From IMG/VR virus record IMGVR_UViG_3300035698_012504, positions 122,694 through 186,693 of that record: 64,000 bases of DNA, one strand, 5' to 3'. The notes beneath the pieces are model-generated. The model had not been told where the DNA came from. It searched no databases and saw only the letters and a program-made list of their open reading frames with translations. Below, one piece after another: positions 1,334-56,985 of the stretch (its first letter is position 1; each line of letters opens with the position of its first letter). The stretch is from a virus. A program made the position numbers and the translations under genes.

Positions 1334-3079
1334 ATGTTTAGATGTGAAATATGTGATAGAGAATTTAAAGGAATAAGATCGTTAGGTGTCCACATTAAAA
1401 GAATACATATGATTGAAACATCTGAATATTATTTAAAATATATTAATTTTAATAATAAATGTAAAATTTGTTCTAAAGAAACCAATTTTATAAATCTATC
1501 TAAAGGATTTAGAAAATATTGTAGTGGGTCTTGTAGAAATAAAGATCCTTATTATCAAAATAAGATTAAAGATACTAATTTAAAAAAATATGGTTCGGTT
1601 TCCCATTTTAATAATAATAAAATTCGTGATAAAATAAAGAAAACAAACTTAAAAAGATATGGGGATGATAACGCATTTAAAAATAAAGAGATTCGTGAAA
1701 GACAGAAAAAAACCCTCATAGAAACCTATGGTGTGGACCATCAATCAAAAATACATTCTGTTAAAAAAATATTAAGTAAAAAATCCAAAGAAAATTATCC
1801 AAATTATATAGATCAGATTAAACAAACAAATTTAGAAAGATATGGAACAGAATATGCGATTGCTTCAGATGAATTAAAAGAAAAGATAAAAAAATCCAAT
1901 CTAAAAAAATATGGGGTAGATAATGTGTTCAAACTCAAATTTTTCCAAGATAAATCAAGAAAAACAATAAAAGAAAAATATGGTGTAGATCATATATCTC
2001 AAAGTGAAATAAGAAAGAAAACAATTTTTACGAATTACTACACCAAACTTTTAACAGCTGAAAAATTTACTTCGAAAATTCTTCCCCTTTTTAATTTAAA
2101 AGATTATGATGGTACTAATAATAAATATTCATGGAAATGTAATAAATGTGATAATGAATTTGAAGATCATTTAAACAATGGACATATACCTAGATGTAAA
2201 AAGTGTTATCCAATTTGGTCAGGATCCTCAAAACTTGAAAAAGAAGTTAGAGAATTTATTGAAACACTTAGCATTAATTTCACCTCTAATACTAGAAAAA
2301 TTATTTTTCCTTTTGAATTAGATGTTTATATTCCAGAAAAAAATATAGCTATAGAATTTAATGGATTATATTGGCATAGTGAATTAAATGGGAAAAATAA
2401 GAATTATCATCTAGATAAAAATTTGAAGTGTAAAGAAAAAGGAATTCAATTAATTCATATATTTGAAGATGAATGGATTAATAAACAAGAAATAGTTAAA
2501 TCTATTATTAAAAATAAATTGGGATTGACTGAGACAAAAATATACGCTAGAAAATGTTTAATAAAAAATATTAATAATAAAGAAGCAACTGATTTTTTGA
2601 ATGATAATCATGTACAGGGAAGAATAAATGGAAAACATGTTGGTCTATATTTTAAAGACGAGTTGGTATCCATTCTTACAATTGGAAAAACTAGATTTAA
2701 TAAAAAATACGAATATGAAATATTAAGATTTTGTAATAAAATTAATACGAATACTATCGGTGGGTTTAGTAAGTTGCTAAAATATGTTATTAAAAATCAT
2801 TCTATATGTTCTTTAATTACATATGCAGATATACGTTATAGTGATGGAAAGTTATATAACTCTTCCGGTTTTAATCAATTAAATAAATCTACACCAAACT
2901 ATTTTTACTTAGATAAAAACTATAATTCTAGATTGAGTAGAATTCAATTTCAAAAACATAAATTAAAAAATTTATTAGAATCATTTGATCCTAAGTTAAC
3001 TGAGTGGCAGAATATGCAACTCAATGGGTATGATCGTATTTGGGACTGTGGGAATTTAGTATATGAATATAACTTTTAA
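1334..3079 (+). CDS. free-standing homing-endonuclease-like protein (N-terminal C2H2-like zinc finger, tandem KYG(V/S)xN repeats, DUF559/Vsr-like PD-(D/E)XK nuclease domain)
   Basis: N-terminal CEICDREFKGIRSLGVHIKRIH. At least six repeats of the form NLK(K/R)YG..N....KI...I.K. Nuclease-like FPFELDVYIPEKNIAIEFNGLYWHSE...KNLKCKEKGIQLIHIFEDEW. Sits in the 12-22 nt gaps between the RNAP beta-prime C fragment and beta genes. Confidence 0.55.
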   Translation: MFRCEICDREFKGIRSLGVHIKRIHMIETSEYYLKYINFNNKCKICSKETNFINLSKGFRKYCSGSCRNKDPYYQNKIKDTNLKKYGSVSHFNNNKIRDKIKKTNLKRYGDDNAFKNKEIRERQKKTLIETYGVDHQSKIHSVKKILSKKSKENYPNYIDQIKQTNLERYGTEYAIASDELKEKIKKSNLKKYGVDNVFKLKFFQDKSRKTIKEKYGVDHISQSEIRKKTIFTNYYTKLLTAEKFTSKILPLFNLKDYDGTNNKYSWKCNKCDNEFEDHLNNGHIPRCKKCYPIWSGSSKLEKEVREFIETLSINFTSNTRKIIFPFELDVYIPEKNIAIEFNGLYWHSELNGKNKNYHLDKNLKCKEKGIQLIHIFEDEWINKQEIVKSIIKNKLGLTETKIYARKCLIKNINNKEATDFLNDNHVQGRINGKHVGLYFKDELVSILTIGKTRFNKKYEYEILRFCNKINTNTIGGFSKLLKYVIKNHSICSLITYADIRYSDGKLYNSSGFNQLNKSTPNYFYLDKNYNSRLSRIQFQKHKLKNLLESFDPKLTEWQNMQLNGYDRIWDCGNLVYEYNF

Positions 3080-3100: not shown

Positions 3101-6100
3101 ATGCAATATGCCAGTATAAAACCATTCAAACCGGTTACGAGTATTATAATTCCGCCGAAGGGAATTAAAGGAAAAAATGTATGCTTAGCAGTTTTTCCAG
3201 AGAACGATTTGTTCTTTGACTTCTATAGATTAATGGGAATAAAACCTGCGTTTGTTAAGCACGTTCATGTTCCTATAGTTCAGAAGCCGGTTCGAATTAG
3301 GTTGACTCCTACATACAAAAAAATAATCAAGTCTCATAAGTTGTTCCCATCACAAGGGCACTTCGGAGATTATACAAAAGTATCAGACAAAAACTTTTAT
3401 CTTGATATGAGTATGTATATAGCAGCTCTACAAGCGAAGTTTAAAATTACTAGATATAACTCTGGAAGAGCATACGTATCAATTCAAAAATTAATATCTG
3501 CTTTAGATAGTGTACCTGCAGAATCACACGAAAGAGTTATATTATATGCTGTCAATATAGATAAACCAATACCTAAGAAACTTTTAAGCAGAAGGATATA
3601 TCCTGTATGGGCCATGCTGTTTCAATACATTAGTGGCCGAACAGAATCTCTCCCATTCGATAAACTATTACTATTTATATATGGACAAGACGAAAAAAGA
3701 TTTGTATTATTGTATGATAAAGATAAGAAAGTAAATCTAGCTAGAATTAAAAGCTATCTTAAGAAACTTAAATCACTAGATAAAGATGATGAAGAAGCTG
3801 TCGAATCTGAGATCACCTCACAAAAAACTGTAGAAAATCTAAACTCTACCACAACACTTACAAATGTAGAGAAAGACAACGTTCAGAAAACAGTAGATGA
3901 ATACCTAGAAGTTGATCCGTCTGCCAAAGAAGAACCTATTGGGAATATAGTAGCTGCTGCGATTGCATATAAGGTAACAGGTAGTATTGAAAAAGCAAAA
4001 TCTATTTCTAAAAAGGCAACATCAACTGATAAAGAAAAAATAATACAAAACTATGCTAAAGATCTTATACCAAAACAAAAAGCCTATCCACAGATTAGAT
4101 CTGCTATGGTTAAGATGGCAAGTCCAGCAGATATAATAGATAATCAAGTTCCTACTCACCTCCTTGAGAAAAGAAAGAGAGACTTTGCTGAGAATTTAGT
4201 TGAGGATTTAACTGATGCATTCAAGGTCTTAGAAAATAAAGATATGCCTCTGAAGGTTAAAGATATAGAAGTTAAAACTATGAAGTCTCCTCCCAGTGAT
4301 CTAACCCCTACAATCAAGGATAGATATACCGTGACTATGACTGATGATAAAGGAGTAGACCAGACTGTATATATGGATCTCCCTCACCTTACAGAGAACG
4401 GAACGTTTATGATATATGGTCAGGAGAATGTATTAATCAATCAGATTATACCTTATCCTATATTCTTTCTAAAACCATACCTTGGTAGGTTTGAATCATC
4501 TTACTCTACTGTAGCAATATATAGCAAGAGACTTAAAAGAACTTCTTATTTAATGATTCATATAGGTAACTATAAAATTCCATTGACTATGTTCATGGCA
4601 TATAAATATGGATTAAAACAATGTCTAAATCTATTTGGAATGAAATATACTCTTACTGATAAAAAAGATGGAGAGAATTCTCTAAAGTTACATGATGGAA
4701 CATTCATTAATTTTACATTCGAAGATGATATACTTGGACCAGAGGTAATTGAATCATTTAGATTTGCTCTTCCTAGTATTCCAGAAGGAGAAGATATAGA
4801 ATCTTCTGAGACATGGCAACACGGACTGGAATCATATACAGATAATAGAAACTGTGTTGATACTATGGATCAGATATGGGCAAATATTGTGACCCCTATA
4901 GAGATTAAAATTCTTAAATCAAAAGGGGATCCTACTAATATAAGAGACATAATTATATTCATAGCTAAGGAAGTTGTTCGTGGTCGAGTAGATGATAGAA
5001 ATGGTTGTGATAAACTCAGAATAAGATCGTCTGAATTGTTTGTGGCATTAGCACAGAAGCAGGTACTGATGGCATACAATGAGTATATGAGTAAGAGAGC
5101 GGGTGGAGATACAACTGCTACTCTATATATAAATCCTACGTCTGTGTTCACTGATGTTATAACCTCTCAGAACGTTGCTATATTAGAAAATATAAATCCC
5201 GTTGAAGAGTTATCAACAATGACAAGAATATCCCCTGTTGGTATTGGTGGTGTTCCTAAGTCGGAAGCATTTCCAAGACAGGCTATGAACGTCCACCCAA
5301 CATACTTCGGATGTATAGATCCTTTAGATACACCAAACGGGCCAGGGGTTGGATTCCAGCAGCATCTGACAGTCGGTGCGACAATAAGTAATGTCAGAGG
5401 TCAGATGATTGTTAAGGATAGAAAGAATGTTAAAGCCACGGAAATATTAAGTGTCAGTCCAGCGTTAATACCATTTGTAGAATCGAATGAAGGTGCTAGA
5501 GTTACTATGGCTGCCGGTCAGCAGAAACAGGCAGTGCCTATTAAATTCCCAGAGAACCCTGCGGTTCAAACAGGATACGAAGCATGTCTCACCCCACTTC
5601 TATCAGATAGCTTTATTAAGAAGAGCCCAGTGGACGGAGAGATTGTAGATATAAAGGATGGATTTATTTTAGTACTTGATAAAAGTGGAAAGACTCATGT
5701 AGTTGGTACTCGTCCAGCTAACCTTAAGAGTGGTGGCGGTCAGGATGGGCTAAGTGTATTTCATCCAACTGTTAAACTAAAACAGAAGGTTAAAGAAGGA
5801 ACTATCATAGCAGAAGGGGCCAATGTTAAGGACGGATTAATATCTAATGGTGTTAATATGTTGACTGGAATGATGCCATGGAAAGGATATAATTTTGAGG
5901 ATGGTATGGTGATAAGTGAGTCAGCAGCGGCGAAATTCATATCTGTTCACGCAGAACATAACGAAGCACTCGTCACCCCAGAAGAAGATATATCATTCAT
6001 ACAAAGCATCGGAAACACAATTAGAAAAGGAGACATCCTCCTGACATATTCAACAGCAATATATGATGTACAGGCAAACAAACATATACGAGCAGAGAAC

Positions 6101-7144
6101 GGACGTGTAACAGACATAGAAGTATATTCTAATGTACCTGAAGATGCTATACCAGAAAAGCTATTACCAGCATATGAACGATTTAGAGATCAATATAAAA
6201 CATTGCATGGTAAATATCCTATAGGACACTTCAGAGAGAAGGGTGAGAAGTTTGAAGGGATTAAAGTAAAATTTATTATTGCACAAGAGCTTAGTATATT
6301 TAAAGGAGATAAACTTAATAATCGTCACTTCAACAAGGGAGTTGTTGCTATCATTGAGAAGGATGAAAATATGCCTGAGACTCCTTGGGGTGATAAATTG
6401 GAGATGTTATATAATCCATTAAGTATTTTAAATAGAATGATTACTGGTCAGTTATTAGAAATGGCAACTGGATTAGTAGCTAAAAGAATTGCAGATCTAA
6501 TGGAAGAACTACCAAGAAAGAGATTCGAAGTAATATATCATAAGATACTTGTACTAATGGATGGAACTAAAGGAAAGACATATAGTAAACGGGTACATCA
6601 AAAGATGTCAGCATTATCTGATCCAGCATATGAAACAATTAGAAAACAAGTTATAAAGAATGGATTCGTTCCAATTATATGTGCTCCATTTAAGAGTCCA
6701 GATAGAAAAGCAATTGAGGTAGCTCTGAAGTTAGTTGGTAGATCGGCTAGAACTAAATTAAAGATAGCTCATTTAGGTGTGACAACAGAACCAGTAGCAG
6801 TAGGATATGTTTATGTTAACAAGCTTGAGCATATGTCAGAGAAGAAGATCCACTCCAGAGGAACAGGCGGATATAATTCAATAACATTTCAACCAACTGC
6901 AGGTAAAAGGAAAGGTGGTGGTCAGAAGTTAGGTGAGTATGATATGTATTCTTTATTAGGATGGAATTGTCCCACTCTAATTGATGAGTTCTTTGGACCA
7001 CTTAGTGCCGATCATGCTACAAAGAACCAGATGGTATCTGAAATACATCAAACTGGATCTACAGAATTTAAGACTCCTGTTCATAATCCAGTTAAAGATC
7101 TATTCTCTCAGATGATGACAGCCATACACTTGGAGTCTGAATAA
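3101..7144 (+). CDS. multisubunit RNA polymerase beta subunit (full length, set 1)
   Basis: LPHLTENGTFMIYGQENVLINQIIPYPIFF (beta region D: GTFxINGxERV). GQQKQAVPI. FKGDKLNNRHFNKGVVAIIEKDENMP (GDKxxxRHGNKGV). HSRGTGGYNSITFQPTAGKRKGGGQKLGEYDMYSLLGW (GGQRFGEMEVWALEAYG). Confidence 0.9.
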   Translation: MQYASIKPFKPVTSIIIPPKGIKGKNVCLAVFPENDLFFDFYRLMGIKPAFVKHVHVPIVQKPVRIRLTPTYKKIIKSHKLFPSQGHFGDYTKVSDKNFYLDMSMYIAALQAKFKITRYNSGRAYVSIQKLISALDSVPAESHERVILYAVNIDKPIPKKLLSRRIYPVWAMLFQYISGRTESLPFDKLLLFIYGQDEKRFVLLYDKDKKVNLARIKSYLKKLKSLDKDDEEAVESEITSQKTVENLNSTTTLTNVEKDNVQKTVDEYLEVDPSAKEEPIGNIVAAAIAYKVTGSIEKAKSISKKATSTDKEKIIQNYAKDLIPKQKAYPQIRSAMVKMASPADIIDNQVPTHLLEKRKRDFAENLVEDLTDAFKVLENKDMPLKVKDIEVKTMKSPPSDLTPTIKDRYTVTMTDDKGVDQTVYMDLPHLTENGTFMIYGQENVLINQIIPYPIFFLKPYLGRFESSYSTVAIYSKRLKRTSYLMIHIGNYKIPLTMFMAYKYGLKQCLNLFGMKYTLTDKKDGENSLKLHDGTFINFTFEDDILGPEVIESFRFALPSIPEGEDIESSETWQHGLESYTDNRNCVDTMDQIWANIVTPIEIKILKSKGDPTNIRDIIIFIAKEVVRGRVDDRNGCDKLRIRSSELFVALAQKQVLMAYNEYMSKRAGGDTTATLYINPTSVFTDVITSQNVAILENINPVEELSTMTRISPVGIGGVPKSEAFPRQAMNVHPTYFGCIDPLDTPNGPGVGFQQHLTVGATISNVRGQMIVKDRKNVKATEILSVSPALIPFVESNEGARVTMAAGQQKQAVPIKFPENPAVQTGYEACLTPLLSDSFIKKSPVDGEIVDIKDGFILVLDKSGKTHVVGTRPANLKSGGGQDGLSVFHPTVKLKQKVKEGTIIAEGANVKDGLISNGVNMLTGMMPWKGYNFEDGMVISESAAAKFISVHAEHNEALVTPEEDISFIQSIGNTIRKGDILLTYSTAIYDVQANKHIRAENGRVTDIEVYSNVPEDAIPEKLLPAYERFRDQYKTLHGKYPIGHFREKGEKFEGIKVKFIIAQELSIFKGDKLNNRHFNKGVVAIIEKDENMPETPWGDKLEMLYNPLSILNRMITGQLLEMATGLVAKRIADLMEELPRKRFEVIYHKILVLMDGTKGKTYSKRVHQKMSALSDPAYETIRKQVIKNGFVPIICAPFKSPDRKAIEVALKLVGRSARTKLKIAHLGVTTEPVAVGYVYVNKLEHMSEKKIHSRGTGGYNSITFQPTAGKRKGGGQKLGEYDMYSLLGWNCPTLIDEFFGPLSADHATKNQMVSEIHQTGSTEFKTPVHNPVKDLFSQMMTAIHLESE

Positions 7145-8097
7145 TGAATAAACTAGAATTTTTGGAGGAGGCTATGTTCGGAGTTGGTAAGAAGAATGCT
7201 CCTACATTTATATATACTATATTAAATGGTAAACCACCGTACCCTCCTCTTGTAGGACAAACATCAGATCATAGACAAAAAATTTGGAATAGAATCGCAG
7301 TTGATTTTAACATTCCAGATAAGGCTCTTAATAATTTATTAAAAATAAAAGAAATAGAGATGAGAGCATCATGCGAAGGCCACTCAGAAGAGAGACCAAC
7401 ATTTCTTATTATAAGATTAAAGGATCAAAGAGAAGAATATATTAAAACATTTGTAGAAGCGTTAAATAAAGAAAAAGATATCGTAGCAGGATATGGTCTT
7501 GGAAATAAAGGATTCTATAGAGTCGGAATTACTATTGAGATATGGCATGATAAAGATCCTATTAGATTTAAAAAATGGTGGTTAGCATTACCAAAGAAAA
7601 TAAATAATGCATTTAAGTCTTCATATGTATCAGAGAGCTGTTACATTCAAGAAGTATCATCTAATCCTCTACAAGGAGTTGTAGGCCCATTCAGTGTAGG
7701 AACACACCAACTAACCGGTCTTCAGATGTGGACGCTTGGGAGCATGTTTAAGCCCTTCAGAAAGAACGTAGGTGATGCTGCCTGGTTGATCATAGCTAAA
7801 CCAAAAAATATTGAGAAGGTAGGTGGAGAATCTAAAATAAAAGTATTCTTTGGAAAGGTATTATTTGGAGACGCTCATAAAATTTATAGAAATATAAAGG
7901 AGTGGGAGACTGGAACGGCACTATATGGTATATGGGATACTACTAAAACAAAACGCCAAGGTGGGTTTGTTAAGAAGATAGAAGGTATAGATTCTATACA
8001 TACAAAGGCAGAATTTATAATTGAATTTGACTCCGGATTATTAAATAGTCCAGCGATTTCATCCCACATTAGTGGGAAGATAAGGAGAAATAAATAA
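7144..8097 (+). CDS. hypothetical protein (possibly an RNAP-associated subunit by position)
   Basis: 317-aa ORF starting at the stop of the beta gene (ATGA overlap). No recognisable motif. Confidence 0.4.
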   Translation: MNKLEFLEEAMFGVGKKNAPTFIYTILNGKPPYPPLVGQTSDHRQKIWNRIAVDFNIPDKALNNLLKIKEIEMRASCEGHSEERPTFLIIRLKDQREEYIKTFVEALNKEKDIVAGYGLGNKGFYRVGITIEIWHDKDPIRFKKWWLALPKKINNAFKSSYVSESCYIQEVSSNPLQGVVGPFSVGTHQLTGLQMWTLGSMFKPFRKNVGDAAWLIIAKPKNIEKVGGESKIKVFFGKVLFGDAHKIYRNIKEWETGTALYGIWDTTKTKRQGGFVKKIEGIDSIHTKAEFIIEFDSGLLNSPAISSHISGKIRRNK

Positions 8098-8646
8098 ATG
8101 GATTTAACAGATGATAAAACATTGGGAAGACTTTATCTTGATAAGGATGAACCTAGTATAACCCAAGAACAGATAAATGAACGACTGCTATATTTCCATT
8201 CTCAAAATGTGTTATTGGATGCTGCAAAACATCCGATGTCTAAATATGATATAGAATTTAATTATGATATTTTGGAGATAGATGATCAGGAATTTTGGAC
8301 ACATCTAATGGTGGAGTTAGCTAAGATTTATTCTTTGAATAATCTTAAAATGTTTTTGTCTCCATCGTTTACAATTTCAGAAATTCCTAACTCAGAAAAA
8401 CCGGAATCAATTAATTTGCCGGTCAATATTAAGAGGCTTTTTAAATGCCTAAAAGTTGATGTTCCAGACGCTATGAATGAGGGAAAAATTAGCAGCATAA
8501 CTACTCGTCAGGAGCTAGAAGAACTTACTATAAAAGAGGGATATTGCAGGCTGTTTTCATGGTCAATTTATAACTTAGATAAGGAGAATTACGTCAAGTT
8601 TTTACGTGAAATTTTACGTCAAAAAGACCTTGACTTTCCTGACTAA
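8098..8646 (+). CDS. hypothetical protein
   Basis: 182-aa ORF immediately following the previous gene (TAAATG junction). No motif recognised. Confidence 0.4.
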   Translation: MDLTDDKTLGRLYLDKDEPSITQEQINERLLYFHSQNVLLDAAKHPMSKYDIEFNYDILEIDDQEFWTHLMVELAKIYSLNNLKMFLSPSFTISEIPNSEKPESINLPVNIKRLFKCLKVDVPDAMNEGKISSITTRQELEELTIKEGYCRLFSWSIYNLDKENYVKFLREILRQKDLDFPD

Positions 8647-8692
8647 AACGGTTAAAAAACGACCAAAAATAGCCATTTTCTAGGGTTTTACT

Positions 8693-8716
8693 ATATATAT
8701 TAATTAGTGAGAAGGA
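8693..8716 (+). promoter_or_regulatory. copy 1 of conserved promoter-like motif TATATATTAATTAGTGAGAAGG
   Basis: One of four near-identical AT-rich motifs (consensus TATATATTAAATAGTGA) found only in intergenic regions upstream of small GC-rich genes. Contains TATATTA, reminiscent of phiKZ-type early promoters. Confidence 0.45.
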
Positions 8717-8798
8717 CAGGTTCAACCGTGTTTTACCAGTCTTTCTCCTCTCTTACCGGTACGTACTGGTGAGGGAGAAGCTGAGTTGGGTTTCCCGT

Positions 8799-8810
8799 CT
8801 AATAAAGAAT
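8799..8810. repeat. 12-bp direct repeat CTAATAAAGAAT (left copy) flanking the GC-rich cassette
   Basis: An identical 12-mer recurs at 9179-9190. The two copies bracket a roughly 370-bp segment of anomalously high GC. Confidence 0.4.
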
Positions 8811-8856
8811 TTTAATTGGGCGTGTTACCTACACTACACACATGAGGAGCAGGATT

Positions 8857-9081
8857 ATGGATCTCTTTGGAGCAATCGGAACGGCAATGGAAATCGTAGA
8901 AGAAGGTGCGGAGGTCGCTGAAGGACTCTCACCATTGGCCCTCGGTGGAATCGTCGCAGCCAGTGCCGTCGCCGGTGGCATCACCGTGGCAGCGATCACC
9001 CACACCATGGGCAAGGGCGGCACGGAGGGCAAGAAGAAGAAGAGCAAGAAGGAAAAGGCAGCCGCCCCCGCCACCGCCTAG
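8857..9081 (+). CDS. small GC-rich membrane protein (hydrophobic Ala/Gly-rich helix plus Lys-rich tail)
   Basis: SD GAGGAG 8 nt upstream of ATG 8857. MDLFGAIG...LALGGIVAASAVAGGITVAAI...KKKKSKKEKAAAPATA. Codon usage is GC-rich, unlike the rest of the window. Bracketed by the promoter motif and a strong hairpin. Confidence 0.45.
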   Translation: MDLFGAIGTAMEIVEEGAEVAEGLSPLALGGIVAASAVAGGITVAAITHTMGKGGTEGKKKKSKKEKAAAPATA

Positions 9082-9130
9082 TTACAACAGTCTTAACGAC
9101 ACGCGCCGAGCTGGCGGAGTCGCAGAGGTA

Positions 9131-9173
9131 GAGACGCGATCACTGGAGAGAAATCTCCTGGTGGTCGCGTCTC
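9131..9173 (+). terminator. strong 13-bp-stem hairpin (terminator-like, no U tract)
   Basis: GAGACGCGATCAC...GTGGTCGCGTCTC inverted repeat with a 17-nt loop, directly after the small GC-rich gene. Confidence 0.4.
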
Positions 9174-9178
9174 ATACC

Positions 9179-9190
9179 CTAATAAAGAAT
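9179..9190. repeat. 12-bp direct repeat CTAATAAAGAAT (right copy)
   Basis: Identical to 8799-8810. Confidence 0.4.
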
Positions 9191-9231
9191 CAAAATATTT
9201 TTGTTTTAAAATAAAAAGGAGAACGTGTATT

Positions 9232-9567
9232 ATGTTTACAGTTGAACAAAAGTCGTCGAATTTCAGTGTTGGTGGACAACTAATAGGATTTGATGGAGGT
9301 GGAGCAGACAATGAATTAATACTAAAATTTAGAACTAGAGTAGGAGATGTTGAAATAACTATACCAAATGTTTCCCCAATGGTTATTAAACTAATGCAAA
9401 AAGTTGGAGTGAATAATTTAAAGGGTCAGGTGCTTGATCTAGATAGAAATAGATTGAATGCTGAATCTGTACACCAAGAGACAGCAACGGTAGTTGGGTC
9501 AGGTATGCAGAAAAAAGGAGAAGAAGTTACTCCTGCAGTAGTAGTTGGCGCAGGAGTCCAGAAGTAG
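9232..9567 (+). CDS. hypothetical protein
   Basis: 111-aa ORF with SD AAAAGGAGA upstream. Confidence 0.35.
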   Translation: MFTVEQKSSNFSVGGQLIGFDGGGADNELILKFRTRVGDVEITIPNVSPMVIKLMQKVGVNNLKGQVLDLDRNRLNAESVHQETATVVGSGMQKKGEEVTPAVVVGAGVQK

Positions 9568-10240
9568 AACGAAAACAGAAAGGTCTCTAATGAGAATCCA
9601 AAAGCTCTTGGTAGAACGGGGTGTAGTTTACCCCTCTGCTGTAGCGAAAATGCTATTGGCAAAAGAAGTTATCGAACACATTTTATTAAAGTTCAGAGAG
9701 AAGACTAATTTAAGTTGGGAAAATCGTCCTCCTAAGGATGAGAAGTGTAAGAAATCAGTAACATTGGAAGTTGTAACTTCAGTAGATAAATGTTATAAAG
9801 TTGAGAACTGGGTCGACATCGATGGAATCGAAGGTCCGTTCTTAATGAAAAATAATATTGTATTTTATAATAGAACTGAGAAATTACTACTAGTAATAAT
9901 GTGTCCGTCGTTTATGAATATCCCAACAGAGATAACAGATGTCTGGGTTAGAAGAGTAATTCCATTCACATATGGCGTAGAAGATTTTACAGTCCCTGAA
10001 GTTGTAGGTACTGTGAACTTCGAAGAGTTCTTCAATCGGGCAGTGTTCTCTACCATATTTGGAAAAGGTCAGGACGAAGTCATTAAACTTCATAGAGTAT
10101 ATGGTACATTCCAATGGGCGATCTCAACCATTGAAAGCAAATTAAGAAGACCTGAAGTATTATCAGATGATGTAGTTACGGACACCCCACCGAAGGTTGT
10201 TGAACCAGTGGCGGATGAGGTATCTGTAATAGTTACTTAA
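9545..10240 (+). CDS. hypothetical protein
   Basis: 231-aa ORF. No motif recognised. Confidence 0.4.
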   Translation: MAQESRSRTKTERSLMRIQKLLVERGVVYPSAVAKMLLAKEVIEHILLKFREKTNLSWENRPPKDEKCKKSVTLEVVTSVDKCYKVENWVDIDGIEGPFLMKNNIVFYNRTEKLLLVIMCPSFMNIPTEITDVWVRRVIPFTYGVEDFTVPEVVGTVNFEEFFNRAVFSTIFGKGQDEVIKLHRVYGTFQWAISTIESKLRRPEVLSDDVVTDTPPKVVEPVADEVSVIVT

Positions 10241-15336: not shown

Positions 15337-17832
15337 ATGTTAATACGAAAGTCAGGTATCATCCTTCCGAAAGATGACCCTCAGTTAGAGTTGATAAAAT
15401 CAGACCTCACTAGGAAAGTCTTTCAGTGGGATGGATCATGGAAAACTATGACCTTTTACGAGGACATGTCAGACTACATAGTTATCCCTAGATTCTACCC
15501 TGCTCTTGGAAAAATAAGAGATGATAGAACTGACGGAGATGATATAGAAATAGAATCAAAAATAAAACCTTTGAATTCTAGACAAGAGAAGGTGATGAAC
15601 TTTCTTGAGAAAACAGAGAATTGTATACTTAGACTCGAACCTGGGAGTGGGAAAGCTCAACCAATTTATTCTAAAATATTGACACCTATTGGTTGGAAAA
15701 ACCTTCAAGATATTCAAATCGGGGATAATGTAATTGATCCAGTATCTGGAAGAAATGTAAAGGTATTAGGTGTTTTTCCTCAAGGTAAAAAAGAAGTATA
15801 TAAATTAACTTTTAATGATGGAGCCACAACGTTTTGTTGTAATGATCATTTATGGAAAGTAAAATATAAAAGATCATGTATTGGTGAAAAAGAATATTGG
15901 AAGATTAAACCATTAAATGATTTAAAAAATGATTATTATATAGATAAACAAAAAAGACTTAAATATTTTATCCCAATTACATCTCCTATTGAATTTGAAA
16001 ATCAAGAAATAAAAATAGACCCTTATCTTTTAGGTTGTTTGCTTGGAGATGGAACAATTAGATTTGGTGGTGGAACTATATCGTTATCTTCCAGGGATAA
16101 AGAATTGATAGAAACTTGTTCGGTGTTATTAGATAAATATAATCTTGAGTTCAAAAAAGATAACAAATATGACTACAGAATAAGAATTAAAAATAATAAG
16201 TTTAGAAAAAAATTTAGAAAAAAAGGAAAATATTTAAATCCTTTAAAAATATATTTGGATGAATTGGGTCTTCTGGGTAAAAAATCATATGAAAAATTTA
16301 TACCAAATACATATAAATTTAATTCTATGTATAATCGAATTAGTATTCTACAAGGACTCTTGGATACCGATGGATATGTTTCAGATAAAAAACAAGAAGT
16401 TAGTTTTTCATCTACATCTTATACGTTATGTAAAGATGTTAAATTTATAGTTGATAGTCTTGGTGGAAAATCCAAAATATATCCAAAACAAACATATTAT
16501 ACATATAAAAATATTAAGAAAAAAGGAAGACCTTCCTGGGTAGTAAATATAACTTTAGATAAAAATATAATTCCATTTAGATTATCTCGAAAAGTTAAAA
16601 GATATAATAATATTCATAAATATCCTCCTTCGAGAGCAATAAAAGATATTAAATATATTGGAAAAGAAGAATGTCAATGTATAAAAGTTGATTCAGATGA
16701 TGGATTATACATAACTGATGATTTTATAGTAACACATAATACTGTTACAGCAATAGAAACTATATGTAGATTAAAGAAACGAACTATTATATTTGCTCAT
16801 AAAACAGAACTATTAGATCAATGGAGAGGTGAATTTCTTAAACATACTAATCTAACAGAAGATGATATTCAGAAGGTTAATACAGACGATAAGAAGTTTG
16901 ATGGCTGTCTGAAAAAGAAAATCATTTTATGTACACCCCATACTATATCTGTAGCTATTAGATTAAATAAAAAAGATTTCATACGCGCATTATTAAAAGC
17001 AGGCATAGGTATTTGTTTTATAGACGAATGCCATGTTGGAATAGGTCCAGAGGAATTCTCCAAGAGTTCAATTTATATAAACGCCAAACGAATATATGGA
17101 TTATCTGCTACACCATTTAGACCAGATGGAAATGATGACATAATAAGATATCACCTCGGAGAGGTAAAGTATTTTCCTCCGGAGAAAGATGAACTAATAA
17201 ACCCCAAAGTTCTTATGGTACATATGCCGTTCCATGTATTTGAAACATATAATATGAAACAAAATTTAATGTGGGGAGGACGATTTCAGAATGCTAGATA
17301 CTGGAATCTATTGGCGAAGCAACCTAAGTATATTCATAATGTTGCGTCGATTATAAAGAGAGCATACACAGAGGGAAGAAATATATTAGTACTTGGCAAT
17401 AGAGTTCAGGGTCTAATGAACATGGCCGAGGCATGTAATATTCATAAAAAAGACATCGGTATATTTATGAGCACTGCCACCAGTGAACATAAGAAAAGAG
17501 TTCTAGAACTTTCAGATACTACAGATCTTAAAGAAGCATTCTATAAAAAGCGAGTTGTGTTTTCTACATATGGTATGGCTAGGGATGGAAACAACAGAAA
17601 AGATTTAGACTTTCTTGTATTATGTATACCGACTGGCAACATAGAACAAGCAGTGGGTAGAGTTCAGAGAGAACTCAAGGGGAAACGTAGACCAATAGTA
17701 ATAGATTTAGTAGATACCCAAAGTCCTAAGAATAAATCTGGAAATTATATATTTGAATACCAGGCACAGAGAAGGAAAGAATTCTATGCTAAGATGGGTT
17801 GGAAAGTTGAGACGATATTTTTTAAAGAATAA
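15337..17832 (+). CDS. SF2 (DExH) DNA/RNA helicase interrupted by an intein in the Walker A motif
   Basis: The extein reads ...LEPGSGK|TVTAIE... (Walker A GSGKT once the intein is removed). CFIDECH (motif II), LSATP (motif III), QAVGRVQR (motif VI). Confidence 0.8.
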   Translation: MLIRKSGIILPKDDPQLELIKSDLTRKVFQWDGSWKTMTFYEDMSDYIVIPRFYPALGKIRDDRTDGDDIEIESKIKPLNSRQEKVMNFLEKTENCILRLEPGSGKAQPIYSKILTPIGWKNLQDIQIGDNVIDPVSGRNVKVLGVFPQGKKEVYKLTFNDGATTFCCNDHLWKVKYKRSCIGEKEYWKIKPLNDLKNDYYIDKQKRLKYFIPITSPIEFENQEIKIDPYLLGCLLGDGTIRFGGGTISLSSRDKELIETCSVLLDKYNLEFKKDNKYDYRIRIKNNKFRKKFRKKGKYLNPLKIYLDELGLLGKKSYEKFIPNTYKFNSMYNRISILQGLLDTDGYVSDKKQEVSFSSTSYTLCKDVKFIVDSLGGKSKIYPKQTYYTYKNIKKKGRPSWVVNITLDKNIIPFRLSRKVKRYNNIHKYPPSRAIKDIKYIGKEECQCIKVDSDDGLYITDDFIVTHNTVTAIETICRLKKRTIIFAHKTELLDQWRGEFLKHTNLTEDDIQKVNTDDKKFDGCLKKKIILCTPHTISVAIRLNKKDFIRALLKAGIGICFIDECHVGIGPEEFSKSSIYINAKRIYGLSATPFRPDGNDDIIRYHLGEVKYFPPEKDELINPKVLMVHMPFHVFETYNMKQNLMWGGRFQNARYWNLLAKQPKYIHNVASIIKRAYTEGRNILVLGNRVQGLMNMAEACNIHKKDIGIFMSTATSEHKKRVLELSDTTDLKEAFYKKRVVFSTYGMARDGNNRKDLDFLVLCIPTGNIEQAVGRVQRELKGKRRPIVIDLVDTQSPKNKSGNYIFEYQAQRRKEFYAKMGWKVETIFFKE
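15655..16740 (+). mobile_element. LAGLIDADG intein (362 aa) apparently beginning with Ala rather than Cys/Ser
   Basis: Block A AQPIYSKILTPIGWKNLQDIQIGDNV. Two LAGLIDADG motifs, LLGCLLGDGTIRFGGG and ISILQGLLDTDGYVSD. C-terminal DDFIVTHN followed by +1 Thr (TVTAIE). Removal recreates GSGKT. Confidence 0.7.
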
Positions 17833-18413: not shown

Positions 18414-19171
18414 TGAGCGAAGTATCATTACCAAATGATAAATTTTCTATCTTCCTAACCATTGTATCAATGATGCAACAGTCATGTGATAACATGCTTA
18501 TAAAGGGTGGGAAGATATGTCAATCCTCTAGTAGAAAAAGTTCAATCTTTGATATAGATTTAGAACCACTAGTAGGAGACATTGATCTAATCGTTAGTAG
18601 ATTAGAATCAAAAAAGGATCTACTTGAAACGTTTAGAAAACAAGAAGTAGATATGACTTTAGAAATTAATGAGAATAATTATATATTTAGAGATAGATTC
18701 TCTAGGGTAACTTGTCATAACATCAAACCTGAAATTGCATACAAAATGAATGTTCCTGTTTCTGATTTAGATAAGACACTGAAGTTAGATGATGTCGAAA
18801 TAATATTTGAATACACTATGAATAGAATGATGATAGATAGAATATCTTCTTTCAGAAAGGCCTTGAGTGCTAGGCATCTGGTGATCGAAGGAAAGGGAGA
18901 TAAGGTAAACTTAAAAATAAATACATCAGATAAGTCATTGGCTACGTTCGGAACCTTAGCAACTATAGATGATCTCCAACAAGAGTTCTCAGGGATTCTT
19001 CCGTACTATTTAAATGTTGTTATGACTAATGTAGAGAGTATAGTATTCACATTGTATTCACGACCAAAAGAAAAAGACTATCTACTTAAAATGGAATCAT
19101 CAATCGGTACCTCTCCCGAAATACCGATTACCGTTTGGGCACTATCAAATCAAACAGACGGAGAAGACTAA
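18413..19171 (+). CDS. hypothetical protein
   Basis: 252-aa ORF. Confidence 0.4.
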   Translation: MSEVSLPNDKFSIFLTIVSMMQQSCDNMLIKGGKICQSSSRKSSIFDIDLEPLVGDIDLIVSRLESKKDLLETFRKQEVDMTLEINENNYIFRDRFSRVTCHNIKPEIAYKMNVPVSDLDKTLKLDDVEIIFEYTMNRMMIDRISSFRKALSARHLVIEGKGDKVNLKINTSDKSLATFGTLATIDDLQQEFSGILPYYLNVVMTNVESIVFTLYSRPKEKDYLLKMESSIGTSPEIPITVWALSNQTDGED

Positions 19172-23104: not shown

Positions 23105-24346
23105 ATGGAAAGAGAAAGTTCATTACACCGGGTAACAAAAGGTAAATTCCTTAAGATGTATCTTACCCATTATGGTTATCTTTATAGATTGATGACTGAT
23201 TGCCTGCACTCCCATGAAGGGGAGCCGAACCGATACCATCTAGAGGATAATCTATGGACTCATACCATGTTAGTATTCAATGGACTGAATCTTTTCGATC
23301 CTTCTCTCTGTTACAACGGTATAAATATAAGTGATGTGGGAAATAAAGTAATTTTGACTGCAGCTTTGGTCCATGACTATGGAAAGATTTCACGTAGGCA
23401 ACCCAATAGAAAAGGGGACGGCGTGGCTTTCTATGGACATGGTCAAGCAGGCACACAGTTTGCAGCAGAGGTGTGTCACAAATTGTTTGGGGACGATCCT
23501 GATTTTGGTCTCATTCTACATTGCGTAACATTACTTACAAGTAGACACATTGATGCTTATCAATTGAAAGATAAAGGAAATATTGAAGGATTTTGTAACA
23601 ATTCATGGTTCATTACTGAATGCTTCAATAGATTATTAAGTGCTGATGAATATGGTCAGATCACCGATGATGACAATGATCGGATGAAGAATCCTGACCT
23701 CAGGTCGAACCAATTTACCATAGCGATTCAATCCCTACGGGAATGTGGGGTAGACCCTATATTAGATTTAAATAGAGAAATCTATTTAAATAAAGATGGT
23801 TCCAAATTAAAAGAAGACGATGATATTAATGGATGTATATTTTGTGGAGCTCCGGGCGTAGGGAAAGACTACCTCGCATTAAAATTAGGGTTCAAAATAT
23901 TTAGCTTCGATGATATCAGAGTAGCCGAATATATTAAAGAACATCCTGAGGCAGTTGATTCCTGCGACCCGGACACTTTATATAATGAAGCATACAGATG
24001 GTGCAACTCTAATAAGGTTGACTTAATGGCCTTGCTACGGAATGCGATTGTAGAATTCAGAGCAATCAATGGTACAGATGCGAAAATAGCAATATGTAAT
24101 ACGAGTCTTACGGTTAAATCTCGTAAGCAATTATTCAGTCTCTTGAAGAAAATACTAGGAAAAACATCCAAGATAGGATGTAAGTTTATAATATGTAACA
24201 CAAAAGATTACATTGCAAGAGATGCAGATAGAAAAGAGAAAACTGTAAAAGAACATGTAATAAATTGGATGATTCCTAAAATGAGTATCCCTACTCAGCG
24301 AGAAGGATTTCATAAAGTTGAGGTGATCTGGAACGACACCGAATAG
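23105..24346 (+). CDS. HD-domain phosphohydrolase fused to a T4 Pnk-like P-loop polynucleotide kinase (RNA end-healing candidate)
   Basis: HD motifs HTMLVF...TAALVHDYGKIS. Kinase motifs CGAPGVGKDYLALKLG (Walker A), FDDIR, IAICNTSLTVKSRKQ (T4 Pnk ISDTNLNPERR-like). Confidence 0.65.
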   Translation: MERESSLHRVTKGKFLKMYLTHYGYLYRLMTDCLHSHEGEPNRYHLEDNLWTHTMLVFNGLNLFDPSLCYNGINISDVGNKVILTAALVHDYGKISRRQPNRKGDGVAFYGHGQAGTQFAAEVCHKLFGDDPDFGLILHCVTLLTSRHIDAYQLKDKGNIEGFCNNSWFITECFNRLLSADEYGQITDDDNDRMKNPDLRSNQFTIAIQSLRECGVDPILDLNREIYLNKDGSKLKEDDDINGCIFCGAPGVGKDYLALKLGFKIFSFDDIRVAEYIKEHPEAVDSCDPDTLYNEAYRWCNSNKVDLMALLRNAIVEFRAINGTDAKIAICNTSLTVKSRKQLFSLLKKILGKTSKIGCKFIICNTKDYIARDADRKEKTVKEHVINWMIPKMSIPTQREGFHKVEVIWNDTE

Positions 24347-35485: not shown

Positions 35486-36480
35486 TGCCACCATCTGAGA
35501 AAAAGATTCCAGGGAAGCTTTCCAAATATACTGATAAGTTAGTAAGAGATGCGGTTGGAAATCAATACGACAGAGAGACTAGATTAAACATAGGGACTAC
35601 TGACTATAACTTATATAACGCAGCAATAGTAATTGGATGTGGGGGAACAGGTTCTTGGACCAGCTTCTTCCTTGGAAAAATAAGAACAATTCAGCATCTT
35701 TATCTCATTGATCCTGATACAATAGAGACATCCAATTTACAAAGAACTCCTTATCATTATTCTCATATAGGAGAACCAAAAGTATCTGCTCTAGCATCTA
35801 TCATCTCTGGTTCTTCATTAGACACAACAATCTTTCCAATAAATAGATACTTTAATGAAGAGACTGCAAATGATTTAATATCTGAGAAATTACTTCAGGA
35901 CTGTGTAGATAAATCTGTGTTGGTAATAGATTGTAGAGACAATGACTTTCAAGACCATGATCAGATTAAGAGACTCGCGTCCGAGTTTTCATTTAATAAG
36001 TTGGCTATACTAAGATGTGCATATAATGGAATATCTGTAACCCTTGACTTTGATCCAGAGAGTCACCCATCATGGGGAGAAGGCGGATATACAGAGACTC
36101 CATCACATGTGATCCCAGCTTCTATGGCAGCATTCTTAGTAGTGTCAGCAGCGTTTAAATATTATGAATATAAGAACAAGAAGCCTTGGATATTTAATAA
36201 TCCTATGACTTTTAACTCAACCGATTTTCTCGAAATGCTATCTATGGGTCATGCACTAGTGCAACCACCTACATCAGAAAAAGATAGAATAGAATTGTCT
36301 ATAGTTCTTAAAGATATGATCCAACAGAAGGAAGTATCATCTAGTAGAAAAGGCATTGTCAGAGAAATAGTGGCTCGTTATTTACGTGCCCAGTTTGATG
36401 ATATAAAAGAAAAACTTACGCCTGAGATTATTGAGAGGGCAGTAGAAATCGCATTGAAAGAAACGGAGAAAGATTCATAA
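35485..36480 (+). CDS. E1-like (ThiF/MoeB/HesA family) adenylyltransferase
   Basis: AAIVIGCGGTGSWTSFFLGKIRTIQHLYLIDPDTIETSNLQRTPY: Rossmann GxGxxG followed by the DxDxxExSNLNRQ motif. Confidence 0.8.
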   Translation: MPPSEKKIPGKLSKYTDKLVRDAVGNQYDRETRLNIGTTDYNLYNAAIVIGCGGTGSWTSFFLGKIRTIQHLYLIDPDTIETSNLQRTPYHYSHIGEPKVSALASIISGSSLDTTIFPINRYFNEETANDLISEKLLQDCVDKSVLVIDCRDNDFQDHDQIKRLASEFSFNKLAILRCAYNGISVTLDFDPESHPSWGEGGYTETPSHVIPASMAAFLVVSAAFKYYEYKNKKPWIFNNPMTFNSTDFLEMLSMGHALVQPPTSEKDRIELSIVLKDMIQQKEVSSSRKGIVREIVARYLRAQFDDIKEKLTPEIIERAVEIALKETEKDS

Positions 36481-37580
36481 TGCCTATAACAAGACTTAAG
36501 AAAGATAAGAGTGTACCCAAAGATGTGGGTGGATCGGGATTGGTTCCTAAAGCTAGCAAGCTTGCCCCGACTCACGCCTATGGAGCGGGTGTAAAGACTT
36601 CGAACGCGTGGGAATCCAAAGATCCAAAAATAATAGATTTCGTTAGTACTAGTAAAACAGTTCCTTGCGCAATTCCAGAACCAATTTATCAAGTATGTAG
36701 AGGATTAGATGCAGAATATCCCAGTGTAGAGTGGAGCATTCTGGTAAAGGGTAGCTGGGATGTTGAAAGAGATATGTTTGTATTGGAAGACGAATACTTT
36801 CTTCCTCAGCAAGAAGTCTCCGGAGCCCATGTGGATTACGAAGAGGACAATCCAGACTTCAATGGAGTGATACACAAACATCCAGGTGGAGTGACAAGTT
36901 TCTCTGCCACAGATGAATCATATATTAACAGGAATTTTATAATAAGCTTATTGTGGGTTAACCACGATTTTCATTATGGTATTGCTAACACTAGATCCAG
37001 AGATATGGGTGCAACAAGAATAAGACTTAAACTTAAACCAATACCGATGCAGGATCATATAGCAGTCCTTCCGGAAAATCATGCAGAGAAAATAAAAGAA
37101 AGATCATATGCTTATAAAAGATCATATGCTTATAGTGGTAGTCAATTTGGTGGGCTAGGAAACTGGCAAGGCAGAGGCAACCACAACGTTCACTCTAGCC
37201 AAGGCGCAGGTATGAGACACCAGGGTACCCAGAACGGCAAGCCAGGATACTGGCAAGGCGGTGTATTCCACCCTACCGAAGGTCATGGCTCGAACGACTC
37301 GTCTTCGGGGATGACCGGGAATAGAAGCGGTTCTGCGTTCGCCGAAGATGCTGACCTCGATCCCGACGAAGACCGCGCAGGCGGTGGGATAGGTGGTTGG
37401 AACCCATACGAAGATGATGACCTTCAATCATTATCAGGCGTCCCCGATGACGACGACGATGATGACGGAAAACCTCTAGGCGCACAATCGTACAACGATA
37501 TGGACGCCGAAGAATGGGAAGCATATATGGAATCTATTGACCACGAGTACGCAAAAATACCAGCGTGGATGTGGAAGTAA
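36480..37580 (+). CDS. JAB/MPN (JAMM) metalloprotease with a long Gly/Gln/Asp-rich low-complexity C-terminal tail
   Basis: Perfect JAMM motif NGVIHKHPGGVTSFSATDE (HxHx7Sx2D) with upstream acidic residues (DVERDMFVLEDE). The tail at 37050-37560 is GC-rich and disordered-looking. Start overlaps the E1 stop (TAATG). Confidence 0.8.
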   Translation: MPITRLKKDKSVPKDVGGSGLVPKASKLAPTHAYGAGVKTSNAWESKDPKIIDFVSTSKTVPCAIPEPIYQVCRGLDAEYPSVEWSILVKGSWDVERDMFVLEDEYFLPQQEVSGAHVDYEEDNPDFNGVIHKHPGGVTSFSATDESYINRNFIISLLWVNHDFHYGIANTRSRDMGATRIRLKLKPIPMQDHIAVLPENHAEKIKERSYAYKRSYAYSGSQFGGLGNWQGRGNHNVHSSQGAGMRHQGTQNGKPGYWQGGVFHPTEGHGSNDSSSGMTGNRSGSAFAEDADLDPDEDRAGGGIGGWNPYEDDDLQSLSGVPDDDDDDDGKPLGAQSYNDMDAEEWEAYMESIDHEYAKIPAWMWK

Positions 37581-55120: not shown

Positions 55121-55145
55121 ATACATATTAAATAGTGAGAACACA
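55121..55145 (+). promoter_or_regulatory. copy 3 of conserved promoter-like motif (ATACATATTAAATAGTGAGAACACA)
   Basis: Same core as 8693, 32507 and 56918. Followed by SD AAAGGAG and a GC-rich small ORF. Confidence 0.45.
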
Positions 55146-55515
55146 TTTTCAGAAAGGAGTATTGTTGCCAACCATCCAGGACGAAAGGATAAACCGTTTA
55201 AGAAATTCCAAAAATACGCAGGTATCTGAGCGTGTTCTCAGAGAAAATGCGGCTTTGCGTAAGCAGGTTGAGGGTCTCCAGCAGGGCTCGACAGTTCCAG
55301 CTCGAAGTGTTTGTGGCGTTTTAGTAAGAAAAGGTGACATCCAAACGGTAGTTGCCAATTCTATGCACGTATTCCTTTCTTCATTGATTGGTAATGAATT
55401 CGGCGGTGTTGGTGAACTAGTCGCTGCCGGTGTCGCGGTGGCAACTGGTACATTGATTGAAGAAATCTTCCCAGAGGTTCAGTCTGAGGAAGACCTTGAT
55501 GCTGATGAGGAATAA
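55135..55515 (+). CDS. small GC-rich protein (start uncertain; possibly TTG 55162 behind AAAGGAG)
   Basis: The ORF track starts at a GTG inside the promoter motif. The coding part is GC-rich relative to the window and ends at a canonical terminator. Confidence 0.4.
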   Translation: MRTHFQKGVLLPTIQDERINRLRNSKNTQVSERVLRENAALRKQVEGLQQGSTVPARSVCGVLVRKGDIQTVVANSMHVFLSSLIGNEFGGVGELVAAGVAVATGTLIEEIFPEVQSEEDLDADEE

Positions 55516-55520
55516 AAAAG

Positions 55521-55552
55521 AGGGGGTGCACTGCAACACCCTTTCTTTTTTT
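55521..55552 (+). terminator. rho-independent terminator
   Basis: AGGGGGTG-CACTGCAA-CACCCTTT stem-loop followed by CTTTCTTTTTTT. Confidence 0.65.
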
Positions 55553-55611
55553 GGTTGTATTTATTCTGAGGACAAATTTTATATAAACCAATTAAACTAT
55601 AGGGGTTAAAT

Positions 55612-56917: not shown

Positions 56918-56946
56918 GATTATATATATTAAATAGTGACAGCACA
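56918..56946 (+). promoter_or_regulatory. copy 4 of conserved promoter-like motif (GATTATATATATTAAATAGTGACAGCACA)
   Basis: Same core. The 3' end forms the hairpin AGTGACA-GCACACGT-TGTCACT. Followed by SD GAAAGGAGAG and a GC-rich small gene. Confidence 0.45.
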
Positions 56947-56985
56947 CGTTGTCACTATCATTTCAAGCACCCCGAAAGGAGAGCC

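Follow-up and report, generated by a model that had tools for sequence, protein, structure and literature searches.

ORF74, a 74-amino-acid (aa) open reading frame (ORF) in the genome of an uncultivated phage of ~152 kb, is probably a lineage-specific, horizontally acquired ORFan, i.e. a moron-type accessory gene, that was inserted into the leader of an early operon. It was found in a stretch of 64,000 nucleotides (nt) from the IMG/VR record IMGVR_UViG_3300035698_012504 (positions 122,694-186,693), hereafter called the window, in which every long ORF lies on the + strand and the guanine plus cytosine (GC) content is 34.6%. An earlier note on this DNA had described positions 8799-9190 as a GC-rich cassette bounded by 12-bp direct repeats and encoding a tiny membrane protein, and had proposed either a horizontally acquired mini-cassette or a recombination hotspot. 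The features of the locus, in their order along the window, are as follows.

8098-8646, + strand: a 182-aa gene, the upstream anchor, conserved in all relatives examined
8692-8710, + strand: promoter-like motif TATATATATTAATTAGTGA, with the core TATATATATTAA at 8692-8703, directly 3′ of the stop codon of the 182-aa gene
8709-8747, + strand: leader hairpin 1, GAGAAGGAC...GUCUUUCUC, from the minimum-free-energy fold, at the 5′ end of the presumed transcript
8748-8777, + strand: leader hairpin 2, a 13-bp stem around CCGGTACGTACTGG (inverted repeat I2) with G-U pairs
8799-8810, + strand: first copy of the direct repeat CTAATAAAGAAT, an exact match, off the composition boundary
8844-8849, + strand: Shine-Dalgarno sequence GAGGAG, 7 nt 5′ of the ATG
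8857-9081, + strand: ORF74, the 74-aa ORFan, preceded by the Shine-Dalgarno sequence and called as a gene on the 152-kb source contig
9127-9178, + strand: 3′ stem-loop of ~23 pairs, core arms 9131-9143/9161-9173 (inverted repeat I4)
9179-9190, + strand: second copy of CTAATAAAGAAT, an exact match, at the right edge of the GC island
9232-9567, + strand: a 111-aa gene, which in relatives normally comes first after the conserved promoter

The gene order of related phages is the first line of evidence. A blastn search of the locus against deposited phages returned no DNA-level relative, and single-protein queries of IMG/VR (with the 182-aa, 111-aa, RNA polymerase (RNAP) beta and topoisomerase proteins) detected no close relatives. 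Likewise, the 182-aa protein matched only itself in a word-indexed search of 5.8 billion proteins and an exact look-up of the 111-aa protein gave zero records. RNAP beta has ~20 metagenomic relatives (47-52% identity, on contigs of up to 335 kb), and related phages were reached through these homologues and their contigs, nine loci being examined (L005-L013). A homologue of the 182-aa gene was found by tblastn at all nine (E 1e-8 to 2e-15). At seven of them (L005, L006, L007, L009, L011, L012, L013) it is followed by the promoter core, a leader and a homologue of the 111-aa gene, with no ORF in between; at L008 and L010 the order is rearranged. The comparison with related phages that the earlier note had suggested was therefore made, and it places the ORF at the site in none of the seven relatives with this gene order, all of which are distant (~47-52% identity in RNAP beta). 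After the core, the leader of the relatives spans 114-237 nt at 17-28% GC, whereas the corresponding interval of the window measures 585 nt and holds a GC-rich ORF, leaving ~380-470 extra bases that are unique to this phage. The 111-aa gene is homologous to the syntenic genes of 89-99 aa (E = 1.7e-12 for the match in L013), with common motifs visible by eye. Three relatives (L009, L011 and L013) also keep the order of the window further on, namely a 216-aa gene, a Whirly-like gene (a label given by a weak, sub-threshold Pfam match) and topoisomerase II. The ORF74 segment thus appears to be inserted between the conserved promoter and the usual first gene, and the unit to lie inside the operon leader.

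The second line of evidence is composition. The GC jump reported between the repeats was confirmed: GC measured in 150-nt windows has its maximum, 0.66, within 8810-9212, the top value of the 64 kb (mean 0.346, standard deviation 0.061, i.e. +5.1 standard deviations), making this the strongest GC island of the window. The GC content of ORF74 at codon positions 1/2/3 is 0.64/0.53/0.68. Its third-position value (GC3) of 0.68 compares with 0.15-0.34 in 13 other genes of the genome, and it rises along the gene, the first 30 codons having a GC3 of 0.45 and the last 35 one of 0.90-0.95. Isoleucine is encoded by ATC in 5/5 codons (11% genome-wide) and lysine by AAG in 8/8 (34% genome-wide), and the non-coding 3′ untranslated region (UTR) has a GC content of 57-58%. 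The GC excess of ORF74 exceeds what its alanine and glycine content (28 of the 74 residues) explains. Acquisition of the segment from a GC-rich source is supported by this foreign codon use together with the absence of the ORF in the seven syntenic relatives. The proposal of a horizontally acquired mini-cassette therefore stands as regards acquisition, for which the synonymous codon choice and the seven relatives speak, and falls short as regards the repeat-bounded hotspot (see below). Moreover, an identical ORF74 protein is present on 4 long contigs (sources: JGI, Logan, ENA and MetaClust), and the segment is therefore not chimeric or an artefact of assembly.

The reported 74-aa ORF could be confirmed at 8857-9081, with GAGGAG 7 nt before the ATG and a gene call on the source contig. 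The order GC3 > GC1 > GC2 holds in its frame, and the 225 nt of the coding part show no excess RNA structure relative to shuffled sequences (z = +1.2). Third-position GC periodicity, the Shine-Dalgarno sequence, the ordered layout of the product and this lack of excess structure favour a real gene. The product begins with an acidic helical stretch (residues 1-23, net -6), continues with a hydrophobic helix rich in Gly and Ala (residues 26-50; the best Kyte-Doolittle window of 19 residues scores 1.98) and ends in a disordered tail rich in Lys (residues 52-74, net +6). AlphaFold2, run on the single sequence, places helices at 3-23 and 26-50 (predicted local distance difference test score ~78; ~69 for the two-helix model). 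The single-pass membrane protein of the earlier note is accordingly upheld as a prediction, by the hydropathy window and the two modelled helices, and the positive-inside rule predicts that the N terminus would lie outside and the C terminus inside.

Searches for homologues of ORF74 returned only the protein itself, both in the word-indexed search of 5.8 billion proteins and in a full phmmer search of 1.84 billion representatives. There was no homologue by tblastn against phages, no match to the locus by blastn against phages and plasmids, and no match to peptide patterns scanned against GTDB genomes and JGI metagenomes. Permissive E-values against Pfam, PHROGs, NCBIfam, PADLOC and PDB sequences gave noise only; the best profile matches (MarC, E = 0.056; BnzA, E = 0.003) are both short matches to transmembrane segments. 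Profile similarity to holin, spanin, coat-protein, toxin or defence families in Pfam, PHROGs, NCBIfam and PADLOC did not rise above noise. Neither of the overlapping frames (81 aa on the - strand, 102 aa on the + strand) matched any family, and the exact 3′ hairpin in IMG/VR contigs and a degenerate hairpin pattern in GTDB genomes were likewise without match.

The DNA in front of ORF74 is shared with the relatives. Four copies of the 19-nt motif TATATATATTAAWTAGTGA are present in the window (at 8692, 32509, 55120 and 56921), all of them on the + strand and intergenic, against 0.38 copies expected. Its core, TATA[T/C]ATATTAA, is found at the syntenic place in seven of the nine relatives (L005, L006, L007, L009, L011, L012 and L013), as TATATATATTAA or, for L013, as TATACATATTAA. 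Core positions are L005:14569, L006:15672, L007:14602, L009:14589, L010:15418/15847, L011:14603 and L012:10493, and 7672, 12137 and 16310 in L013. Among these phages the core (extended form ACTATATATATTAAATAnTGA) varies by at most one substitution, despite an RNAP beta identity of ~50%. Copies in the window and the relatives always lie on the coding strand and between genes, and a stem-loop follows in the cases folded. Jumbo phages that encode RNAPs carry a highly conserved, AT-rich motif of ~10 nt near -10 upstream of their early operons, which is read by the virion RNAP (PMC7598289). By analogy, the motif at 8692 is a candidate early (virion RNAP) promoter of a phage clade with two RNAPs, from which transcription would start near 8707. 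In the literature the core sequence was matched only in unrelated eukaryotic papers. No sigma-70-like site was found upstream of ORF74, and no copy of the promoter motif within 9082-9231.

Both flanks of ORF74 would be structured in the transcript. The leader folds with z = -3.7, so that the structured leader noted earlier around CCGGTACGTACTGG is present, as the 13-bp stem at 8748-8777, and is joined by a second hairpin at 8709-8747. The stem of hairpin 2 contains G-U pairs and is therefore specific to + strand RNA; it and the 3′ stem-loop, which likewise has G-U pairs, both fold better as + strand RNA than as the complement. The leaders of the relatives also hold a strong hairpin (z from -2.2 to -4.3), and the structured leader appears to belong to a clade-conserved arrangement of promoter plus stem-loop, a feature that the earlier note overlooked, as it did the position of the whole unit within an operon leader. 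At the 3′ end, the reported hairpin with a 13-bp stem is present at 9131-9143/9161-9173 and extends to ~23 pairs; its fold has z = -6.2 and none of 200 shuffled sequences folds as well. No U-tract adjoins it and it was not scored as an intrinsic terminator. A pyrimidine tract, UCUUUCUCCUC (8740-8750), can pair alternatively with 8709-8717, 8770-8779 or 8844-8854, the last being the Shine-Dalgarno region of ORF74 (inverted repeat I14). Such alternative pairings could regulate translation.

From these elements the following course may be proposed. The inserted DNA would consist of one small gene with its strong 3′ stem-loop, and the resident promoter (core TATATATATTAA at 8692), which is conserved and presumably active early, would drive the transcript. 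This would begin with two hairpins predicted to be stable and protective, followed by ORF74, which with its strong ribosome-binding site would now be the first cistron, and transcription would continue past the stem-loop into the 111-aa gene, the 216-aa gene, the Whirly-like gene and topoisomerase II. Read-through is required because no second copy of the promoter precedes the downstream genes, which in the relatives are served directly by the same promoter. Since read-through is required, full termination is a less likely role for the 3′ stem-loop than stabilisation or processing of the RNA or partial attenuation. The product would be a small bitopic protein of the inner membrane, with the acidic N-terminal helix outside, the Gly/Ala helix in the membrane and the Lys tail in the cytoplasm. 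Made early, it might act on the host envelope, in superinfection exclusion, membrane perturbation or host takeover, a suggestion that is speculative and draws on no homology. The toxin-like effector role suggested in the earlier note is likewise a conjecture.

Morons, as described for lambdoid and Mu-like phages, are extra genes that separate a pair of neighbours in the gene order of related phages (PMC4378225). ORF74 resembles them in being a single small coding region between genes that adjoin in seven relatives, in deviating from its neighbours in composition (GC3 of 0.68-0.95 vs 0.15-0.34) and in having a promoter upstream and a stem-loop downstream. It differs in that the promoter is resident and clade-conserved and belongs to the downstream operon rather than being imported, and in that the stem-loop, whilst very stable (z = -6.2), has no U-tract and must permit read-through. 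The phage itself looks like a lytic, RNAP-encoding large phage and not a temperate lambdoid one, and lysogenic conversion is therefore not the role to be expected of ORF74.

A second comparison is with the cassettes of an early promoter plus stable stem-loop (PeSL) of T4-type phages, which are repeated upstream of ORFans in plastic regions (PMC2839356; PMC4122927). The promoter of PeSLs is sigma-70-like (Arbiol et al. 2010, PMC2839356), and their integration as mini-circles by short homology has been proposed for T4-type phages (PMC2839356; Comeau et al. 2014, PMC4122927). An analogous composite of a highly conserved, early-type promoter motif and a stable stem-loop is present here, at 8692-8777, at 56921-56956 and in relatives, with only four copies of the motif in 64 kb; small ORFans lie directly 3′ in a plastic region, and recombination at short repeats is in both cases the route proposed for the gain and loss of ORFans. 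However, the present motif bears no relation to sigma-70 promoters, and a phage RNAP presumably recognises it. Moreover, a promoter copy lies only to the left of ORF74, the right border being just the 12-mer; no mini-circles or exchange events were observed and the phage is not T4-like. The likeness to phiKZ and AR9 (PMC7598289) lies in the two RNAP gene sets and in a highly conserved, AT-rich motif of ~12 nt upstream of operons. The motif itself differs from the published consensuses, RNAP beta is here one unsplit protein of 1347 aa, and the start of transcription is placed by prediction.

Small bitopic membrane proteins with an acidic N terminus, one helix and a basic C terminus are familiar from phages, for example the inovirus coat proteins Pf3 and M13 g8p, small holins and superinfection-exclusion proteins. 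The ORF74 product, 74 aa long, shares with these proteins a charge dipole (-6/+6) around a single helix rich in small residues. It differs in having no sequence or profile similarity to any of them, and ORF74 has no signal peptide, lipobox, or lysis or inovirus context.

Several points weigh against the reading of ORF74 as an acquired moron-type gene. The leader 5′ of the first repeat (8711-8798) is already 51% GC, and composition leaves the left edge of the foreign segment undefined. Having no promoter of its own and a hairpin that lacks a U-tract, the unit is not a textbook moron. With no donor or homologue found, what speaks for horizontal transfer is the composition of the segment and its absence from the relatives. 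These relatives are distant, and loss in the other lineages or rapid local turnover may account for the absence. An ORF of 74 codons is not rare in sequence of 60% GC, and ORFs of 81 and 102 aa overlap ORF74. All copies of ORF74 seen are identical and hence give no measure of conservation or of the ratio of non-synonymous to synonymous substitution (dN/dS). Lastly, any function proposed for the product derives entirely from its layout of charge and hydrophobicity.

With this in mind, other explanations of the segment were weighed. The first is that it is a mobile mini-cassette which entered by recombination at CTAATAAAGAAT, either as a mini-circle or by site-specific insertion with target duplication, the repeats being true borders and the site a hotspot. 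We consider this unlikely, with some points in its favour. Two exact CTAATAAAGAAT copies do flank ORF74 and its 3′ hairpin on the + strand, as the earlier note had it (8799-8810 and 9179-9190), and the post hoc chance of such a pair bracketing ORF74 within its UTRs is ~0.01. The maximum-likelihood island is 8905-9179, with a sharp right edge at the first base of the second repeat, and deletion of 8811-9190 would leave an intergenic region of 205 nt, inside the 114-237 nt of the relatives. Two short contigs from other ENA samples (L003 and L004) are identical to the window until they end at 8844 and 8818, i.e. 34 and 8 nt past the first repeat; these ends could reflect either a polymorphism in the population or a drop of coverage in GC-rich DNA. 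However, exact direct repeats of this length or more (at least 12 nt) are common in the window, where 12 pairs have a spacing of 50-600 nt, and the left repeat lies within DNA that is already GC-rich, off the composition boundary. The RNAP beta gene contains a third exact copy of CTAATAAAGAAT (6948-6959, - strand), and six copies with one mismatch are scattered, mostly inside genes, giving nine matches in total against 1.9 expected. As these other near-copies lie inside genes, the idea that the repeat is a second type of promoter was rejected.

Nor does the segment carry the marks of a known mobile element. There are no terminal inverted repeats inside the direct repeats and no recombinase at the segment. 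A transposase ORF is absent too, so that neither the terminal inverted repeats, nor the multiple copies, nor the transposase of a transposon or miniature inverted-repeat transposable element is present. Inspection of 9082-9231 for an integron attC site showed a palindrome that is neither followed by a GTTRRRY core nor preceded by a proper RYYYAAC. The same cassette was looked for elsewhere, as had been advised, and a second copy was found neither in the window, nor in the nine related loci, nor in the collections scanned. No allele with an empty site was seen, all contigs with the upstream gene either containing the cassette or ending in it; a scan of JGI metagenomes with the promoter and leader also gave no empty site, in a collection without this phage. 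As markers of the ends of a mobile element the 12-bp repeats carry little weight, and a repeat-bounded cassette or recombination hotspot is not established, given the 12 comparable pairs, the displaced left repeat and the missing inverted repeats, recombinase, empty site and second copy.

RNA genes often account for the GC islands of AT-rich phages, and the segment might be a non-coding structured RNA (a phage small RNA, an RNA stabiliser or a decayed tRNA-like element) in which ORF74 is a chance frame. In L005, 10 tRNA genes make up the GC islands in the matching variable region behind RNAP beta (15414-16040, 17142-17217, 18534-18785, 23780-24036); strong hairpins in the UTRs, three overlapping ORFs in the island and a protein lacking homologues fit the same explanation. 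Against it stand the absence of excess structure over the 225 coding nt, the GC3 of up to 0.95 in the frame of ORF74, which is a coding signature, the well-placed Shine-Dalgarno sequence, and a product ordered into acidic helix, transmembrane helix and basic tail. Moreover, ARAGORN found no tRNA at the locus, and Rfam gave no match at E <= 1 over 8000-10000 and two noise matches (E = 3-8) over 8640-9240. A decayed tRNA cluster was rejected on the lack of tRNA and Rfam matches and of any similarity to the tRNA regions of the relatives. We therefore regard the non-coding reading as decidedly unlikely. As regards tRNAs generally, the window has none, and L010 carries one (18949-19024) whose TTA anticodon makes it a suppressor of UAA stops.

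Alternatively, ORF74 could be an old native gene of the lineage, whose GC content came from its Ala/Gly composition and from selection on the mRNA, and which the relatives lost or were never sampled with, so that no horizontal transfer took place. The 28 Ala and Gly residues raise GC1 and GC2, the relatives are distant (~50% identity in RNAP beta), and another GC island of the window, 37110-37528 (peak 0.61), is part of a normal gene, being the Gly/Ser/Asn/Asp-rich, low-complexity C-terminal region of a 366-aa ORF (36480-37580). This island served as a control. Its GC3 is only 0.48 and its GC1 0.63, and its GC excess is therefore mainly at non-synonymous positions. In ORF74, by contrast, the excess is strongest at synonymous sites (GC3 up to 0.95) and reaches into the non-coding 3′ UTR, and all seven relatives with this gene order lack the ORF. 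A native origin is thus very unlikely.

Bolder than the acquisition of a moron-type gene is a scheme in which the segment is a self-contained, promoterless 'plug-in' cassette. It would move between large phages as a small circle, integrate by ~12 bp of homology into strongly transcribed early-operon leaders and deliver a new class of tiny bitopic effector (acidic N terminus outside, glycine/alanine-zipper helix, poly-Lys tail inside) which acts early in infection by remodelling or depolarising the membrane of the host. We mention it as a long shot. Finally, a type I toxin-antitoxin-like or holin-like module, i.e. a small hydrophobic toxin with a structured mRNA under the control of RNA structure or antisense RNA, is scarcely credible: the small size of the protein with its single transmembrane segment and charged tail, the structured flanks of the ORF (a long 5′ leader and a 3′ stem-loop) and the complementarity of UCUUUCUCCUC (8740-8750) to the Shine-Dalgarno region (8844-8854) would suit it, but there is no antisense promoter of the phage or sigma-70 type on the - strand in 8000-10000, the Shine-Dalgarno sequence is unsequestered in the predicted fold, no toxin, holin or defence family was matched, the setting is a block of transcription and replication genes and not beside lysis genes, and the structured leader is general to this promoter, occurring also in relatives without the ORF.

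Beyond the locus, the window contains the following genes, and an SbcC-like nuclease is also encoded.

3101-7144, + strand: RNAP beta, unsplit, 1347 aa
11094-14265, + strand: topoisomerase II subunits
42271-45069 and 45681-48698, + strand: second set of RNAP subunits
57667-59415, + strand: terminase

The two RNAP gene sets mark a large phage with two multisubunit RNAPs. Two further copies of the promoter motif precede small ORFs, neither of which is similar to ORF74. One is a 126-aa ORF (55135-55515) with a Gly/Ala-rich hydrophobic C-terminal segment and a canonical terminator at ~55518-55552; a direct comparison of this C terminus with ORF74 gave no similarity. The other is a very basic ORF of 77 aa (56986-57219), preceded by a hairpin that abuts the promoter. 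A second intergenic motif, TGAGGACAAA-N(1-6)-TATAAAC, occurs on the + strand at 55567-55588 and 57630-57647 (two matches, none expected), in each case ~20-25 nt 5′ of a start codon, that of a 419-aa gene and that of the large terminase subunit, and is a candidate late promoter.

The neighbourhood of the RNAP genes is also variable. Between RNAP beta and the 182-aa gene lies a 317-aa ORFan (7144-8097). The 182-aa homologue directly follows beta in L005 and L007-L012, and other genes intervene in L006 and L013. The nine loci yielded no homologue of the 317-aa protein, and its gene is therefore probably another lineage-specific accessory gene. Immediately 5′ of RNAP beta is a 581-aa HNH/homing-endonuclease-like gene (1334-3079, GC 23-27%), in a position where a beta′ fragment abuts beta in most of the relatives examined. 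Inteins or LAGLIDADG domains interrupt beta′ in L006, L007, L011, L012 and L013, and such an interruption is also found in the ResIII helicase (window 15337-17832). Selfish elements heavily colonise the RNAP and replication genes of this clade. Adjoining the topoisomerase genes of L011 (20368-21054) are proteins with Acb2/Tad1-hairpin and 'Lockin' Pfam matches, the former being a candidate anti-defence gene; at the equivalent position of the window no protein with either match was noted.

Taken together, these data describe in ORF74 an ordinary kind of phage accessory gene, probably one more horizontally acquired ORFan, and its significance in that respect is modest. What sets the case apart as a clean and well-delimited example is that the ancestral state, comprising promoter, hairpin leader and first gene, can be reconstructed from seven relatives, which indicates that the insertion hijacks a strong resident promoter rather than importing one. 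This bears on how accessory genes are expressed in large lytic phages. The core TATATATATTAA provides a testable promoter consensus for an uncultivated clade with two RNAPs, and is a more reusable result than ORF74 itself. Should ORF74 prove to be membrane-active, it would represent a new family of small phage effectors.

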